Assembly: GCF_055900595.2 (NCBI RefSeq) | Contig: NZ_CM148325.1 | DNA: 64,000 nucleotides | Direction: 5' to 3' (one strand) | In this document: positions 7,962 to 26,260 of the stretch, piece by piece | Numbering within the stretch: position 1 is the stretch's first letter | How the letters are laid out: each line of letters begins with the position of its first letter | Notes under the pieces: model-generated | Databases searched by the model: none | Told to the model about the DNA's origin: nothing | The model's input: only the letters and a program-made list of their open reading frames with translations | Made by a program: the position numbers and the translations under genes

Positions 7962-9980
7962 TTAGACGGCAATAGCGATTAGCAGCACAACCAGTGCGGC
8001 GACCACATACAGGCAATAGAGACGAAAGTCGCCGCTTTGCAGATGCTGTATTTCTTTGGCCAGCCGTTGGGTGGCGCTCACGATGGGGCGGATCACCCGC
8101 TCATCCCAAAAGGGTTCTGTGCTCTGAGCCCTGGCGGTGATGTGCGCGAGACCTTTGTTCAGCCTCAGCGTAGGGTCGAGCTGTTGTCGTAGACGAAATA
8201 GCGCAGAAAAGACCACACGCAGCGGCTGCATCACGCCATTGCCTGACGGGGCCATCGCATTTTCCCAGCCGTAGCCGCATGCCCAGGCATCTCCTGTGCG
8301 ACGAAACGCTGCGCGGCGCGAACGACACCACAGCCAGTAAAGGCCAGGCAGCAAAGGCATCGCCAGTAGTAACAGCAACAGTAATGAGGGAGTGACCCGT
8401 GTATGAAACGTGCCGGGTACAAGTGCCATTCCGCTGGCGACAGTGACGGAAGGGGTATTGGTAAACGCATGGGCAATGTGCATTATCTTCGGTGCCAGCC
8501 AACTGGCACTAAGCGCAATGAATACGCAGAGTGCCGCGAGCAGTAGCATGGCGACGATCATCGTATTTGGCACTTCCTGTGCCTCTTCAGCGTGTGTACT
8601 GCGCGGCGCACCACAGAAAGTAATGCCGTACATTTTGACGAAGCACATTACTGCCAGCCCACCAGTGACTGCCAGCATCACCATAGCAATAGGACCCGCA
8701 AGTTGTAGCGCTACGGCTTCCACACGACTTAGTGAGAACAGCGACTGCCAGGTGTACCATTCGCTGATAAAACCATTCAGCGGAGGAATGGCTGATATCG
8801 CGAGGCAACCAATCAGGCATGCTGCGGCTGTCCACGGCATCCGTTTTGCCAGTGCCCCCATTTTTTCCATGTCGTGGGTATGCAAACGCGAAATAATCGC
8901 ACCCGCGCCGAGAAATAGCAGCCCTTTGAACAGCGCATGGTTGAGCAGATGAAACAGTGCGCCGAGCAGTCCAACCACGGTGAGCAGCGGGTCGTGCAGT
9001 GACAGACCGACCATGGACACACCGACCGCCAGCAAAATAATGCCGACGTTTTCGACGGTACTCCAGGCCAGCAGCCGTTTGATATCCTGTTCCGCCAGCG
9101 CATACAGCACGCCCAGGAGCGCGGAGATTGCGCCGATCGCCATCACCAGAATGCCCCACCACAGCGGCAAACCCGTTTGCGCCAGCAGATCCATCGCCAC
9201 TTTCAGGATGCCGAAAATACCGATTTTGACCATTACGCCAGACATCAACGCCGAAGCGTGCGATGGTGCGGCAGGATGAGCGCGCGGCAACCAGCTGTGC
9301 AACGGCATCATCCCGGCTTTCGCGCCAAAACCGAAGAAGGCCAGCAGGAACACCGCCGACGCCAGCCCCGGAGAAAGTGAAAGCGTGCGGAAACTGGCAA
9401 AATCGAGGTTGCCGCTTTCGCGCCACATCAGCAAGAAGGCAATCATAATCAGCACCGATCCGGCGTGGGCGATAAAAAAGTAGAGCATGCCAGCGTTGAT
9501 TGACGTTTTATCCTGCCTGGCAATGACCAGAAACCAGGAAGACAGCGACATCATTTCAAACAACACGATGAACCAAAAAGCGTTGTCCATCACCAGCAGG
9601 GCAACCATCGATGCGATGAAAAGATTCATAAAGAAGCCCATCGCCGCCGCGCCTTTGCCCTCGTATTCGCGCATATAAGTCAATGAATAGAGCGAACAAA
9701 CCACCACCAGCAAGGAGATAACCAGCACCATAAATGCCGAGAGGCTATCCATTCGCAGGGTTAAATCGGCAAAGTCAAAAGGCGTGGCAAAACGGGCGAC
9801 TAAAGTTACGCCTGCATGTAATTGCGTAATTCCGCTGATGATGCCAATCGCGCCGCCCACCAGCGATGTGATGCCGGAAAGCTTAATAGCCAGTCTGTCC
9901 AGACCGAGTAAAAACAGCGAAGCCAGACTGGCAAACAGATAGAGGATCAGCGACCAGGTTAATAATTGCAGGGCATCCAT
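7962..9980 (-). CDS. hyfB: Hydrogenase-4 membrane subunit, NuoL-like
   Basis: 672-aa polytopic membrane ORF (MDALQLLTWSLILYLF...); conserved position. Confidence 0.93.
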   Translation of the reverse strand: MDALQLLTWSLILYLFASLASLFLLGLDRLAIKLSGITSLVGGAIGIISGITQLHAGVTLVARFATPFDFADLTLRMDSLSAFMVLVISLLVVVCSLYSLTYMREYEGKGAAAMGFFMNLFIASMVALLVMDNAFWFIVLFEMMSLSSWFLVIARQDKTSINAGMLYFFIAHAGSVLIMIAFLLMWRESGNLDFASFRTLSLSPGLASAVFLLAFFGFGAKAGMMPLHSWLPRAHPAAPSHASALMSGVMVKIGIFGILKVAMDLLAQTGLPLWWGILVMAIGAISALLGVLYALAEQDIKRLLAWSTVENVGIILLAVGVSMVGLSLHDPLLTVVGLLGALFHLLNHALFKGLLFLGAGAIISRLHTHDMEKMGALAKRMPWTAAACLIGCLAISAIPPLNGFISEWYTWQSLFSLSRVEAVALQLAGPIAMVMLAVTGGLAVMCFVKMYGITFCGAPRSTHAEEAQEVPNTMIVAMLLLAALCVFIALSASWLAPKIMHIAHAFTNTPSVTVASGMALVPGTFHTRVTPSLLLLLLLAMPLLPGLYWLWCRSRRAAFRRTGDAWACGYGWENAMAPSGNGVMQPLRVVFSALFRLRQQLDPTLRLNKGLAHITARAQSTEPFWDERVIRPIVSATQRLAKEIQHLQSGDFRLYCLYVVAALVVLLIAIAV

Positions 9981-10654: not shown

Positions 10655-10849
10655 GTCTGATTAATTTAATATATTCAATAAGTTATGTGTTAACTGGGTT
10701 CTGAACGGTACAAAAATGATGGTCATTAACGTTCAGCAATAAATGGATTCGACACCCGTGTCGCAGGGGAAAGCGAGAATGTGATCTTGATCACGAGAAG
10801 TGAGGTGTGCTGGCCGCAAGCGCAGCCAGCACTGAATGGAGCAAAGTAA

Positions 10850-11320
10850 TCAGGCGTGTTCTTTCAGCCAGTTCAGCACAACGTCGTGGTGATTGCTGGT
10901 TTTGAAATCGTCAAAGACATGTTCGATTTTGCCATCAGCGTCAATCAGGAAGCTGATGCGATGAATACCATCGTAGGTTTTGCCCATGAAGGACTTTTCA
11001 CCCCAGACGCCGAATTGTTCGCACACCTGGTGGTCCTCATCAGACAGGAGCGTAAAGTTAAGCAGCTCTTTTTCCGCAAAACGGGAGAGTTTTTCGGGTT
11101 TATCGGTGCTGATACCCAGCACATCAACGCCCGCTTTTTTCAATTCATCCATGTTATCGCGTAAGCCGCAGGCCTGTACGGTACAGCCGGGAGTCATGGC
11201 TTTTGGGTAAAAATAAACCAGAACACGCTGTCCCTGGAAGTCGGTCAAATTAACTTGTTCTCCGTCTTGATCCGGCAAGCTAAATTTCGGTGCGATATCA
11301 CCGGCTTTCAGTGGATTCAT
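10850..11320 (-). CDS. bcp: Thiol peroxidase / bacterioferritin comigratory protein (peroxiredoxin)
   Basis: 156-aa ORF MNPLKAGDIAPKFSLPDQDGE... with the peroxiredoxin PGCT motif. Confidence 0.95.
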   Translation of the reverse strand: MNPLKAGDIAPKFSLPDQDGEQVNLTDFQGQRVLVYFYPKAMTPGCTVQACGLRDNMDELKKAGVDVLGISTDKPEKLSRFAEKELLNFTLLSDEDHQVCEQFGVWGEKSFMGKTYDGIHRISFLIDADGKIEHVFDDFKTSNHHDVVLNWLKEHA

Positions 11321-11892
11321 TACTTAACTCCATCCTGTTCATCATGTGGGGAATAATTGACGACGTTTATACTGCCTTGTGCATTGAGTTCTGTACATAG
11401 GGCTTTAAACGCTTGCTCAATATTTGCTGCATCCGCAGAGGCGGGGCTGTGGGCGGTGATCTGAATATGCAACTGTGCAGCCCGTTCATTTTCAGCAGGT
11501 TGCGTGCGCGATACCAGCTCCGCAATGTTCATGTGGTGCGCGTCGAAAAGTGCCGTGAAGCGTTCAATTAAATGCGGGGAGTCTGCCACATCGACCTGAA
11601 CCCAGACAGATGCTGGCATTGGCGGACGCGGACGAGCCGTCGTGCGCTTCATCACGATTAAAAGATCCAGTTCGGCACCTTTCAACGGTAACGTTGATTC
11701 AATCAGAGTAATGGCATTCCATGAACCGGAAAGCAGCATGATAAACGTGAACTCTTCTCCCAGCATCGCCAGGCGACTGTCTTCAATATTACAGCCGCAA
11801 CTACTGACATGACGGGTGATGGTGTTCACAATTCCAGGGCGATCGGCACCCAACGCAGTGATCACCAGATAATGTTGCGATGACAGTGTCAA
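11320..11892 (-). CDS. gcvR: Glycine cleavage system transcriptional repressor
   Basis: ORF trimmed to a TTG start at 11892..11890 (M/L-TLSSQHYLVITALGADRPG...), giving 190 aa; ACT-domain-like protein. The bcp ATG overlaps its stop by 1 nt. Confidence 0.88.
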   Translation of the reverse strand: MTLSSQHYLVITALGADRPGIVNTITRHVSSCGCNIEDSRLAMLGEEFTFIMLLSGSWNAITLIESTLPLKGAELDLLIVMKRTTARPRPPMPASVWVQVDVADSPHLIERFTALFDAHHMNIAELVSRTQPAENERAAQLHIQITAHSPASADAANIEQAFKALCTELNAQGSINVVNYSPHDEQDGVK

Positions 11893-12037
11893 ACTGGTTA
11901 TTCCTTTAAGGGGTGAGTTGTTCTTAAGGAAAGCATAAAAAAAACATGCATACAACAATCAGAACGGTTCTGTCTGCTTGCTTTTAATGCCATACCAAAC
12001 GTACCATTGAGACACTTGTTTGCACAGAGGATGGCCC

Positions 12038-12916
12038 ATGTTCACGGGAAGTATTGTCGCGATTGTTACTCCGATGGATGAAAAAGGTAATGTCTGTCGG
12101 GCTAGCTTGAAAAAACTGATTGATTATCATGTCGCCAGCGGTACTTCGGCGATCGTTTCTGTTGGCACCACTGGCGAGTCCGCTACCTTAAATCATGACG
12201 AACATGCTGATGTGGTGATGATGACGCTGGAGCTGGCTGACGGGCGCATTCCGGTAATTGCAGGGACCGGCGCTAACGCTACTGCGGAAGCCATTAGCCT
12301 GACGCAGCGTTTCAATGACAGTGGTATCGTCGGCTGCCTGACGGTAACCCCTTACTACAATCGTCCGTCGCAAGAAGGTTTGTATCAGCATTTCAAAGCC
12401 ATCGCTGAGCATACTGACCTGCCGCAAATTCTGTATAATGTGCCGTCCCGTACTGGTTGCGATCTGCTCCCGGAAACGGTGGGCCGTCTGGCGAAAGTAA
12501 AAAATATTATCGGAATCAAAGAGGCTACAGGGAACTTAACGCGTGTAAACCAGATCAAAGAGCTGGTTTCAGATGATTTTGTTCTGCTGAGCGGCGATGA
12601 TGCGAGCGCGCTGGACTTCATGCAATTAGGCGGTCATGGGGTTATTTCCGTTACGGCTAACGTCGCAGCGCGTGATATGGCCCAGATGTGCAAACTGGCG
12701 GCAGAAGGGCATTTTGCCGAGGCACGCGTTATTAATCAGCGTCTGATGCCATTACACAACAAACTATTTGTCGAACCCAATCCAATCCCGGTGAAATGGG
12801 CATGTAAGGAATTGGGTCTTGTGGCGACCGATACGCTGCGCCTGCCAATGACTCCAATCACCGACAGTGGTCGTGAGACGGTCAGAGCGGCGCTTAAGCA
12901 TGCCGGTTTGCTGTAA
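12038..12916 (+). CDS. dapA: 4-hydroxy-tetrahydrodipicolinate synthase
   Basis: 292 aa from [18 protein letters not shown]...; ORF 12020..12916 trimmed to the second Met. Confidence 0.95.
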
Positions 12917-24354: not shown

Positions 24355-26055
24355 TTACATTAGCTGGCTTTCCTCACCCTCCGCAGAGCGAAAGCTAATA
24401 CTCACTAACGTGCCGCCACCGGAAGGTTGTGAAAAAGTCAGCGTTCCACCCAGTCGTTCCGCGCGTTCGCGCATAATATTCAGACCATAGTGACCTTCGG
24501 GTTCTTTCGGTTCTCCGATGCCAATCCCGTTATCACGGATATAGACTGTGTGATTGCCGTCCGGCGCGGTGACGCAGCTGACGGCTATTTCGCTGGCGTT
24601 GGCGTGCTTCATCGCATTGAGTACCGCTTCGCGAATAATTTGCAACAAATGCACCTGCATTTGCGCATCCAGCGCCAGTGTTGGCAGACGGCAGTCGAGA
24701 GTCAGTTTTGCGCTGGTTTGATTTTGTAACGTATCCAGCATTTCCCGCAACGCGGAGGGAAGATCCGCTTGCTGCAGCGTCAGGCGGAACGTGGTCAACA
24801 GCTCGCGTAACTGTCGATAAGCATCATTCAATGCCTGGGAGAAATCGGCCATGATATTTTGTGCGGTGGCGTTATCTTCCGGTATCGAACGTTTAAGTAA
24901 CGTCAACTGGATACGTAAGTAAGAAAGCACCTGGGCCAGCGAATCATGTAATTCCCGTGCGATGGTGGCACGTTCTTCCATCAACAGTAACTGCTGAAAA
25001 TGCTTCTGCGCCTGATTAAAGTACAAACCGCGTCCCAGCATCGACGAAACGCTGTTAAGCAGCGGTTCTGATGATGACACGTGGCTATTTTGCCAGTGCA
25101 GTTCGCCGTAAACCGTCTCTTGCATCGTTACCGGTAAAATCTGCATCGGCAATTCGGGGTTTGGTTTCCCTTCACTAATCCGCCAGTTTTCACCGACATT
25201 CAACTCCAGATATTCAGCCGCTTCATTGTCGCGAACAATCTGCAAAATATGGCGGAAACAATGCACATCTATCTGGCTGGTGTTCAGCGCCTGCGAACAC
25301 TGATACAACACTTCCAGGCGACGCTTGGCCTCGTGGAGATCACGGGTTTTTTCTTCTACTGACGCTTCCAGCGAACGATACAATTTATGCAGCTCGCTCG
25401 ACATCTGGTTAAAGGTTTTGGCCAACAGTCCCAGCTCATTGGGCAGACTGGTATCCAGCGGCGGCGAATCGAACTGGCCGTGTTCAATACGCTGACTGGC
25501 GGTAACCAGCTGATTCAGCGGGGCAACCACCTGATGGCGTATGCGGCGCAAAGTAAAAAAGACCAGCGTGAAAATACCGATGCCGCCAGCCAGGGAAATC
25601 GCCACCACCAGCAGCATTTTGCGTTCAGCGTAGTGCTGTAAAGCCAGCACGAACAGGTCTATCTGATTAACATAATTATTAATATTGGCCTGATACCACG
25701 GCAAGTCGCCCTTGCTGAGCCGATTATTCATCTCCAGCCAGTTGGCATTCAGATGCGCATAGCGAGTTTTTACTGCCTCTGGCACATACCAGACGTTGAG
25801 ATTGGTTAATACCGGTGAATGCAGTGCCTGCTGAAATAACTGGCGATGTGCATTGAGTTGTGGACTGCCACTTTGCAAGTCGTAGCCCAGGCGGTAACTC
25901 TGCATACGCAGCGATCCGGCAATATTGATAGCCTCAGCGTCGCGCAAACTGCTCGCCAGAGTTAGCAGTGCGGTACCCGTGGAAAGAATCGACAGCAGCA
26001 CAATGTAAAAAAAGGCCCGGGCCAAACTGGCCGAGACGGGGCGTTTAACAATCAC
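24355..26055 (-). CDS. narQ: Nitrate/nitrite sensor histidine kinase
   Basis: Two TM segments, HAMP, H-box (ELHDSLAQ), ATPase domain; start placed at the internal GTG (…VIVKRPVSASLA) to give 566 aa; the ORF extends 5 codons further to an upstream GTG. Confidence 0.92.
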   Translation of the reverse strand: MIVKRPVSASLARAFFYIVLLSILSTGTALLTLASSLRDAEAINIAGSLRMQSYRLGYDLQSGSPQLNAHRQLFQQALHSPVLTNLNVWYVPEAVKTRYAHLNANWLEMNNRLSKGDLPWYQANINNYVNQIDLFVLALQHYAERKMLLVVAISLAGGIGIFTLVFFTLRRIRHQVVAPLNQLVTASQRIEHGQFDSPPLDTSLPNELGLLAKTFNQMSSELHKLYRSLEASVEEKTRDLHEAKRRLEVLYQCSQALNTSQIDVHCFRHILQIVRDNEAAEYLELNVGENWRISEGKPNPELPMQILPVTMQETVYGELHWQNSHVSSSEPLLNSVSSMLGRGLYFNQAQKHFQQLLLMEERATIARELHDSLAQVLSYLRIQLTLLKRSIPEDNATAQNIMADFSQALNDAYRQLRELLTTFRLTLQQADLPSALREMLDTLQNQTSAKLTLDCRLPTLALDAQMQVHLLQIIREAVLNAMKHANASEIAVSCVTAPDGNHTVYIRDNGIGIGEPKEPEGHYGLNIMRERAERLGGTLTFSQPSGGGTLVSISFRSAEGEESQLM

Positions 26056-26260
26056 ACGCGTCTTCTCCACATAAAATCATTAATGTTCCAGTTTGCTGAA
26101 ATGCAATTTAGTCAGTGATGGGATTATTTGATCTGCCACAGTTTATAGCGAAATAGTGACTTATTCTGGGCACATGAACATTGCCGATTCCCCTGTAAGT
26201 CGGGTAATAACAACACTCATATAAAGAATAAGGTTTTTACAACCAAAAAAGAAGGTCGTT

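Follow-up and report, generated by a model that had tools for sequence, protein, structure and literature searches.

A lineage-wide TTG start in gcvR and a one-base overlap with bcp that need not signify strict translational coupling in Escherichia coli

In Escherichia coli, the regulator gene gcvR appears to begin at TTG, and its stop codon runs directly into the ATG of the peroxiredoxin gene bcp. A sequence-only reading of the locus took the TTG as a sign of low-efficiency initiation for the regulator and the overlap as an indication that translation of the two genes is coupled. The locus thereby raises the question of whether TTG is the true start of gcvR, whether it may keep GcvR scarce, and whether Bcp is made by ribosomes handed over from gcvR or by ribosomes that bind on their own. 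The window, which is the whole stretch of 64,000 nucleotides that was analysed, is from an E. coli chromosome. Genes hyfB, hyfA, bcp and gcvR are located on the minus strand, dapA and bamC are on the opposite strand, and the gcvR-bcp pair points away from dapA. The genes and codons under discussion are the following.

11320-11892, minus strand: gcvR coding sequence, a 573-nt frame of 190 codons plus TAA, for the glycine cleavage system transcriptional repressor with two ACT domains
11890-11892, minus strand: TTG initiation codon of gcvR, assigned from the sequence and from its invariance across Enterobacterales
11320-11322, minus strand: TAA stop codon of gcvR, whose last base, 11320, doubles as the first base of the bcp ATG
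10850-11320, minus strand: bcp coding sequence, 156 aa, for a thioredoxin-dependent thiol peroxidase, with the ATG at 11320-11318
24355-26055, minus strand: narQ coding sequence, 566 aa beginning MIVKRP, with the GTG start at 26055-26053

On the minus strand, the gcvR/bcp junction is GGAGTTAAGTAATGAATCC and is read as GAT GGA GTT AAG TAA TG AAT CCA, where base 11320 is common to both genes. The one-nucleotide overlap (TAATG) is thus present as the sequence-only reading had described it. The region from 10700 to 12100 (1.4 kb compared) shares 100% identity with several RefSeq strains including NZ_CP098223; among 5,426 complete genomes of E. coli, 5,425 gave matches, and most of the others are 95-99% identical. 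The PGAP annotation of a 100%-identical strain gives identical gcvR and bcp boundaries, and the boundaries are the same in K-12 MG1655 (gcvR b2479, 2599906-2600478; bcp b2480, 2600478-2600948). When the window was compared with E. coli K-12 in RefSeq/EcoCyc, boundaries, start codons and the one-base overlap were all the same. The K-12 sequence at the gcvR start and at the junction equals that of the window, and nothing substantive differs, as expected of another E. coli strain. These features are already part of standard E. coli annotation, and gcvR-bcp is an ordinary gene pair. The GTG start of narQ at 26055, which had been proposed together with that of gcvR, is likewise borne out by the sequence, PGAP and K-12, as a 1701-nt gene from this GTG is annotated both by PGAP and in K-12 (b2469). 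A GGAG lies 9 nt 5' of the narQ GTG, and the Shine-Dalgarno (SD) score there is -6.4 kcal/mol versus -3.3 kcal/mol for an alternative GTG at 26070.

Both products belong to the families that their names imply. GcvR scores 395.3 bits against the NCBIfam equivalog NF008612 (PRK11589; cut-off 267), with residues 1-189 aligned to positions 1-189 of the 189-position profile. It carries two ACT domains, PF13740 (ACT_6) at residues 7-82 and PF01842 (ACT) at residues 97-166, and it aligns to the structure of the putative V. cholerae GcvR (1u8s) with E = 1e-38. According to literature cited in PMC1557403, E. coli GcvR binds GcvA and glycine, leading to repression of gcvTHP. Bcp/PrxQ scores 309.9 bits against NCBIfam NF006960 (cut-off 140) over residues 1-155 of 156, matches the AhpC-TSA fold (PF00578, E = 1e-41), and contains the peroxidatic Cys motif TPGCTVQAC in its translation.

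We then considered where gcvR starts. The longest gcvR open reading frame begins at an in-frame TTG at 11958 and would encode 212 aa, and the first in-frame ATG corresponds to Met43. Among candidate gcvR starts, only TTG 11892 has an SD sequence.

11901-11907, minus strand: SD sequence of gcvR, AAAGGAA with the core AAGGA, 9 nt before the TTG

The duplex between this SD sequence and the 16S 3' end was calculated at -5.6 kcal/mol, which ranks 44 of the 59 genes in the region. To compare the start among relatives, one genome per species was used for 80 Enterobacteriaceae species, and a set of 85 sequences was obtained by combining these with Dickeya, Yersiniaceae, Erwinia and Edwardsiella. In this orthologue alignment, which had been suggested as a check on the original claim, the homologous start codon was TTG in 80/80 Enterobacteriaceae species and in 85/85 Enterobacterales sequences. 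At conserved internal leucine positions of GcvR, 17 of 17 vary synonymously among the 85 sequences, with three to six codons each and a major codon at 33-91%. An ordinary internal leucine codon should drift in this manner, so the invariance argues that the TTG is not one. The AGGAA and its spacing to the TTG were invariant in 31 taxa, and TTG with ACAGGAAG at a fixed spacing is also found in Dickeya, a Yersiniaceae genome, Erwinia and Edwardsiella, in two of which automated annotation picked upstream ATGs for gcvR. Within E. coli, 5,423 of 5,426 complete genomes share one and the same 32-mer, which takes in the SD sequence, the TTG and the 14 bases after it; in the two variant genomes that were inspected, the difference sits upstream of the SD sequence.

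A start elsewhere, either at the upstream TTG 11958 or at the internal Met43, has some annotation on its side, because the 212-aa frame is the longest in the window and some pipelines annotate that form (in Salmonella and others), GcvR homologues in databases are annotated at 177 to 223 aa, and an in-frame upstream ATG occurs in some species. However, the upstream TTGs at 11958 and 11955 have SD scores of 0.0 and +0.2 kcal/mol, and an in-frame stop codon precedes any other upstream start in 30 of the 80 species. Column conservation by codon position was 0.92/0.97/0.69 after the TTG versus 0.90/0.83/0.83 in the 45 nt upstream; third-position wobble begins past the TTG, and none such is seen upstream. 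Depending on the species, 43, 44, 45, 48 or 56 nt separate the TTG from a conserved upstream ATG, which thus falls in all three frames. Considering both the lack of codon periodicity and the frame-shifting distances of this ATG, the stretch upstream of the TTG is not coding. In the other direction, a start at Met43 would remove half of the first ACT domain. The equivalog profile and distant homologues begin at the TTG position, and homologues at 32-67% identity start 2-8 residues ahead of the conserved HYLVITA motif. We therefore regard a start at 11958 or Met43 as extremely improbable. The rows for gcvR and narQ are absent from the TRAINSPOTTER N-terminomics, INRI-seq and TetRP supplements, and neither gene is present in PMC9624429. 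Text searches, which lay outside the primary gcvR papers, returned nothing relevant on a UUG/TTG start of gcvR. Ghrist and Stauffer are said to have established the UUG start of gcvR experimentally in 1998, and changing UUG to AUG reportedly raises expression. TTG 11892 is well supported as the genuine start of gcvR, with the sequence, PGAP, K-12, the SD sequence and the orthologue comparison in agreement.

The depth of this feature is limited to a lineage. The gcvR TTG is fixed in Enterobacteriaceae and in four other sampled Enterobacterales lineages. Farther out, one lineage at 67% protein identity starts both gcvR and bcp with GTG, giving a TAGTG overlap, and GcvR homologues at 35-44% identity start with ATG, often with a poor SD sequence. 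Since orthologues outside Enterobacterales use ATG, or GTG in the one lineage, TTG is not needed for GcvR function. The gcvR TTG is therefore a lineage trait held by constraint at the nucleotide level. Near-cognate start codons are known on other regulators, such as lacI (GUG) and the autoregulated infC (AUU). Like regulators whose level is limited by a non-AUG start, gcvR combines a near-cognate start and a normal SD sequence with a low-copy regulatory product. In reporters, UUG initiates at 10-100% of the AUG rate, and it is the start codon in about 3% of cases in E. coli (Hecht et al., bioRxiv 10.1101/063800).

The leader of gcvR was also analyzed. It contains the following putative promoter element.

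11932-11937, minus strand: TATGCT, putative -10 element of gcvR, within the nearly invariant block GTTGTATGCnnGTTTTTTTTATGCTTTCCT

The putative -10 hexamer is TATGCT, TATGTT or TATGAT depending on the family, and the block around it is conserved across genera, which is consistent with a promoter role. Genomic SELEX placed an RpoD site in the dapA/gcvR spacer with other hexamers predicted (PMC3946193). The gcvR promoter predicted there (TTAAAA-18-TCTGAT) was dropped because its hexamers are not conserved in other genera. The same nearly invariant leader block, T8-ATG-CTTTCC at 43-56 nt upstream of the TTG, creates a tiny upstream ORF and allows a possible anti-SD pairing. A hairpin sequestering the gcvR SD sequence was present in the minimum-energy fold of the leader and was rejected as not significant (-7 kcal/mol, z = -1.1). 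The 5' arm of this hairpin is altered beyond Enterobacteriaceae. Further upstream, a short inverted repeat that appeared to covary by eye was rejected as well, as 65% of cells were paired, 49 of 500 shuffles were equal to it, and the RNAalifold consensus energy was -0.25. No Rfam family matched in the region from 10700 to 12100. As for the codon itself, neither AUG nor GUG takes the place of UUG in any of the 85 sequences from Enterobacterales or the 5,423 genomes from E. coli.

Whether the UUG is part of a dedicated translational control device and not merely a weak start is a related matter. In such a device, the UUG and the leader block could set the GcvR:GcvA ratio according to IF3 activity or growth state. 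Whereas infC has an IF3-dependent feedback, no such regulatory role is known for the gcvR UUG, and we consider a device of this kind rather unlikely.

For bcp, the start codon was supported by direct evidence. The ATG (K-12 position 2600478) is backed by the N-terminal peptide MNPLKAGDIAPK and by INRI-seq/REPARATION (PMC13245402 Table S1, 2026 N-terminomics). Its SD sequence lies within gcvR.

11328-11331, minus strand: SD sequence of bcp, GGAG, inside gcvR codons 187-188 and 7 nt before the ATG

The bcp SD score of -6.5 kcal/mol is close to the regional median of -6.6 kcal/mol, and 79 of 80 species retain the GGAG despite the variable last residues of GcvR. No structure was predicted in the RNA around the bcp start (folding z = +0.4 and +0.6). 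At the junction, the two genes overlap by 1 nt in 70 of the 80 species and by 4 nt in four, and six species have a spacer of 2-3 nt. In E. coli, the 50-mer at the junction is identical in 5,416 of 5,423 records, and in strain 22919 the last gcvR codon is changed from AAG to TAG, which results in a 2-nt spacer. Farther out, the gap between gcvR and bcp is 2, 19 or 10-80 nt, and the order dapA/gcvR-bcp is kept in all distant gammaproteobacterial loci that were fetched with identifiable neighbours.

To judge how unusual these features are, base rates were counted in the matching 64-kb record. Among its 59 complete coding sequences, 54 start with ATG, four with GTG and one with TTG, and 10 of 47 same-strand neighbour pairs overlap, by 1 nt in two cases (gcvR/bcp and hyfA/hyfB) and by 4 nt in four. 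In most groups of prokaryotes, about 15% of gene pairs in the same orientation overlap (PMC6728339). Based on these rates, it is the TTG that is rare; overlaps are common.

Protein output was compared using the ribosome-profiling values of Li et al. 2014, which were taken from Dataset EV6 of Mori et al. 2021, where they are given as molecular weight times copies. The synthesis of Bcp was 104366500/20.404 kDa, or about 5,115 per generation, and that of GcvR was 13970690/24.129 kDa, or about 579 per generation, giving a Bcp/GcvR ratio of 8.8; GcvA was made at about 117 per generation. The MS-only xTop mass fractions of 2.96e-4 for bcp and 5.04e-5 for gcvR correspond to a molar ratio of about 7, and the calibrated EV9 values give a ratio of about 8. 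The translation efficiency of bcp is 2.23 in Burkhardt et al. 2017, whose table has a row for bcp and none for gcvR. The number of about 579 GcvR copies, the invariant TTG and the range of UUG reporter rates all fit the claim of low-efficiency initiation, which is plausible as a limit on this low-copy regulator. Most likely, the UUG and the below-median SD sequence together hold GcvR to a few hundred copies per generation, and we infer the UUG itself to be a cause of the low output.

The claim of coupling found no support in the form in which it was stated. The overlap permits termination-reinitiation, and the architecture of gcvR-bcp is that of a coupled pair, with a co-directional 1-nt overlap and an SD sequence within the upstream gene. 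Strict coupling, in which virtually all Bcp would come from ribosomes that finished gcvR immediately beforehand, could further appeal to the tight juxtaposition of the two genes (-4 to +3 nt in 80/80 Enterobacteriaceae species) and to a test of five overlapping pairs in E. coli, four of which were tightly coupled, including hyfHI of the same window (PMC6728339). However, the output of the downstream gene exceeds that of the upstream gene, which does not agree with the expectation for strict termination-reinitiation. Considering that reinitiation events are no more numerous than upstream terminations, the 8.8-fold excess of Bcp means that hand-overs make up at most about 11% of Bcp initiations. 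The other initiations must be de novo at the bcp site or come from extra bcp mRNA. The SD sequence of bcp itself, its translation efficiency and a start free of predicted masking structure also speak against strict coupling, as do the natural 2-3 nt spacers (6 of 80 species and E. coli strain 22919) and the 10-80 nt gaps in more distant orthologues. Pairs coupled by termination-reinitiation, such as hyfHI, astDB and menDH of Huber et al. 2019 (PMC6728339), share with gcvR-bcp the stop/start overlap and the SD sequence inside the upstream gene. In contrast with what strict reinitiation would give, the downstream output of gcvR-bcp is about 9-fold above the upstream output, and the pair resembles bioBF, where initiation is de novo, or a type of coupling in which upstream translation merely aids the binding of new ribosomes. 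Taken together, strict coupling of gcvR and bcp is very unlikely, and partial coupling is likely. The overlap is an instance of the compact operon packing that is common in E. coli and is not the chief determinant of Bcp output.

The excess of Bcp may also be sought in the mRNA. Part of the 8.8-fold difference could be due to an internal promoter or to unequal decay along the mRNA. In its full form, this explanation holds that the excess arises from transcription or mRNA stability: either a promoter within gcvR supplies extra bcp mRNA, or processing makes the bcp part of the transcript more stable. The TTG would then not be the chief reason for scarce GcvR. The genomic SELEX table gives gcvR and bcp as separate units (PMC3946193), which would suit this explanation, and so would a strong hairpin after bcp, which could protect the distal transcript.

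10807-10832, minus strand: GC-rich hairpin, 17 nt past the bcp stop, with an 11-bp stem, a GCUU loop and no U-tract

The predicted energy of this hairpin is -25.6 kcal/mol (z = -4.3), and none of 200 shuffles was as stable. It probably marks where the gcvR-bcp transcript ends or serves to stabilise that transcript. On the other hand, a consensus scan of the minus strand yielded no sigma-70-like site within gcvR, and SELEX reports RpoD sites in the dapA/gcvR and bcp/hyfA spacers and marks internal promoters elsewhere (hyfA), with none in gcvR. That TTG is never ATG or GTG in 85 sequences also suggests that the codon itself matters. We therefore hold it unlikely that transcription or stability is the main source of the difference. 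No convincing terminator-like site was found between gcvR and bcp on the minus strand. A terminator-like match inside bcp was at chance level (z = +0.5), with the number of matches within the expectation from shuffles, and was discarded. The lack of a promoter-like or RpoD SELEX site inside gcvR and of a convincing terminator between gcvR and bcp, together with a strong hairpin that occurs after bcp alone, is weak evidence in favour of the two genes being carried on one mRNA.

Taken all together, a weak UUG start in gcvR with mostly independent initiation of bcp at its own GGAG, the overlap being a matter of packing, is the explanation that we consider probable. In this explanation, the gcvR-bcp mRNA would begin in the dapA-gcvR spacer, and 30S subunits would bind the modest AAGGA and initiate at the UUG at a lowered rate, so that a few hundred copies of GcvR are made per generation. 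Separate 30S subunits would bind the GGAG in the 3' end of gcvR and start bcp independently and efficiently, and a minority of bcp initiations may come from ribosomes restarting after the gcvR UAA. Because Bcp is made about 9 times faster than GcvR, most Bcp is expected to come from ribosomes that bind the bcp site on their own, and the extra Bcp would then be of translational origin and not from an internal promoter.

The finding on gcvR-bcp has little import beyond good annotation. The comparative case for the gcvR TTG is useful since automated pipelines give lengths of 177 to 223 aa in relatives. The general corrective point of this gene pair is that a stop/start overlap is not in itself evidence of stoichiometric coupling.

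In the dapA-gcvR spacer, the cross-species comparison revealed a conserved block, and we considered it together with the candidate RNA structures upstream of the gcvR TTG start (positions in the window):

11921-11952, minus strand: conserved block GTTGTATGCnnGTTTTTTTTATGCTTTCCT
11899-11931, minus strand: potential pairing UUCCUUAAG…CUUAAAGGAA, from the minimum-energy fold
11953-11968, minus strand: short inverted repeat CAGAAC/GTTCTG

The GTTGTATGCnnGTTTTTTTTATGCTTTCCT block was near-invariant in the 80 Enterobacteriaceae species compared, was mostly retained in Dickeya, Yersiniaceae and Edwardsiella, and was better conserved than the wobble positions of gcvR itself. Based on its sequence, a possible -10 element (TATGCT/TATGTT/TATGAT) lies within the block, and most species have upstream ORFs, 3-15 codons long, that begin at an ATG inside it. 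The UUCCUUAAG…CUUAAAGGAA pairing, as folded computationally, can be drawn so that it would mask the ribosome-binding site of gcvR. While this pairing was present in the minimum-energy fold, it was not significant (z = -1.1), and its 5' arm differs outside Enterobacteriaceae. For the inverted repeat CAGAAC/GTTCTG, the symmetry seemed to be retained among genera despite changes in the sequence. When it was evaluated as a covarying element, 65% of the cells were paired and 49 of 500 shuffles were equally good, so the repeat is not supported.

At the other end of the gene pair, a hairpin was found downstream of bcp:

10807-10832, 17 nt past the bcp stop: GC-rich hairpin with an 11-bp stem and a GCUU loop, without a U-tract

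The computed fold of this hairpin was very stable (-25.6 kcal/mol, z = -4.3), and the hairpin may serve as the 3' end of the transcript or as a stabiliser.

The gcvR/bcp junction was compared with other overlaps and with a natural variant. hyfA and hyfB overlap by one base at window position 9980 in the same manner as gcvR and bcp, and hyfH and hyfI overlap by 4 nt, a pair whose coupling has been demonstrated experimentally (PMC6728339). In E. coli strain 22919, the last codon of gcvR is naturally changed from AAG to TAG (corresponding to window 11323-11325), which leaves a GcvR of 189 aa and a 2-nt spacer instead of the gcvR/bcp overlap.

The narQ start region is unusual in the window strain, as its exact 36-mer (26039-26074) was present in just 52 of 5,357 E. 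coli records. The differences between the window and K-12 at this start flank GGAG and GTG, both of which are intact. When the whole window was compared position by position with 3356435-3420434 of the E. coli record NZ_CP098223.1, there were 6,998 mismatches; the two are therefore neither collinear nor identical over the full length. They agree at gcvR-bcp and narQ. In the NZ_CP098223.1 record, hyfJ is annotated as frameshifted.

Among GcvR relatives of 77-98% identity, the annotated lengths ranged from 177 to 223 aa, counted apart from a 331-aa fungal entry. The latter, a 'hypothetical protein' of Astraeus odoratus, shares 88% identity with GcvR and has peroxiredoxin domains as well. This entry has the appearance of a read-through gene call spanning GcvR and Bcp, made on bacterial contamination in the fungal assembly. 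In both of the two loci examined, an upstream ATG was annotated despite the conserved Shine-Dalgarno sequence and TTG there. Taken together, the spread of lengths and the upstream ATG calls point to a gcvR start site that is systematically mis-annotated outside E. coli.
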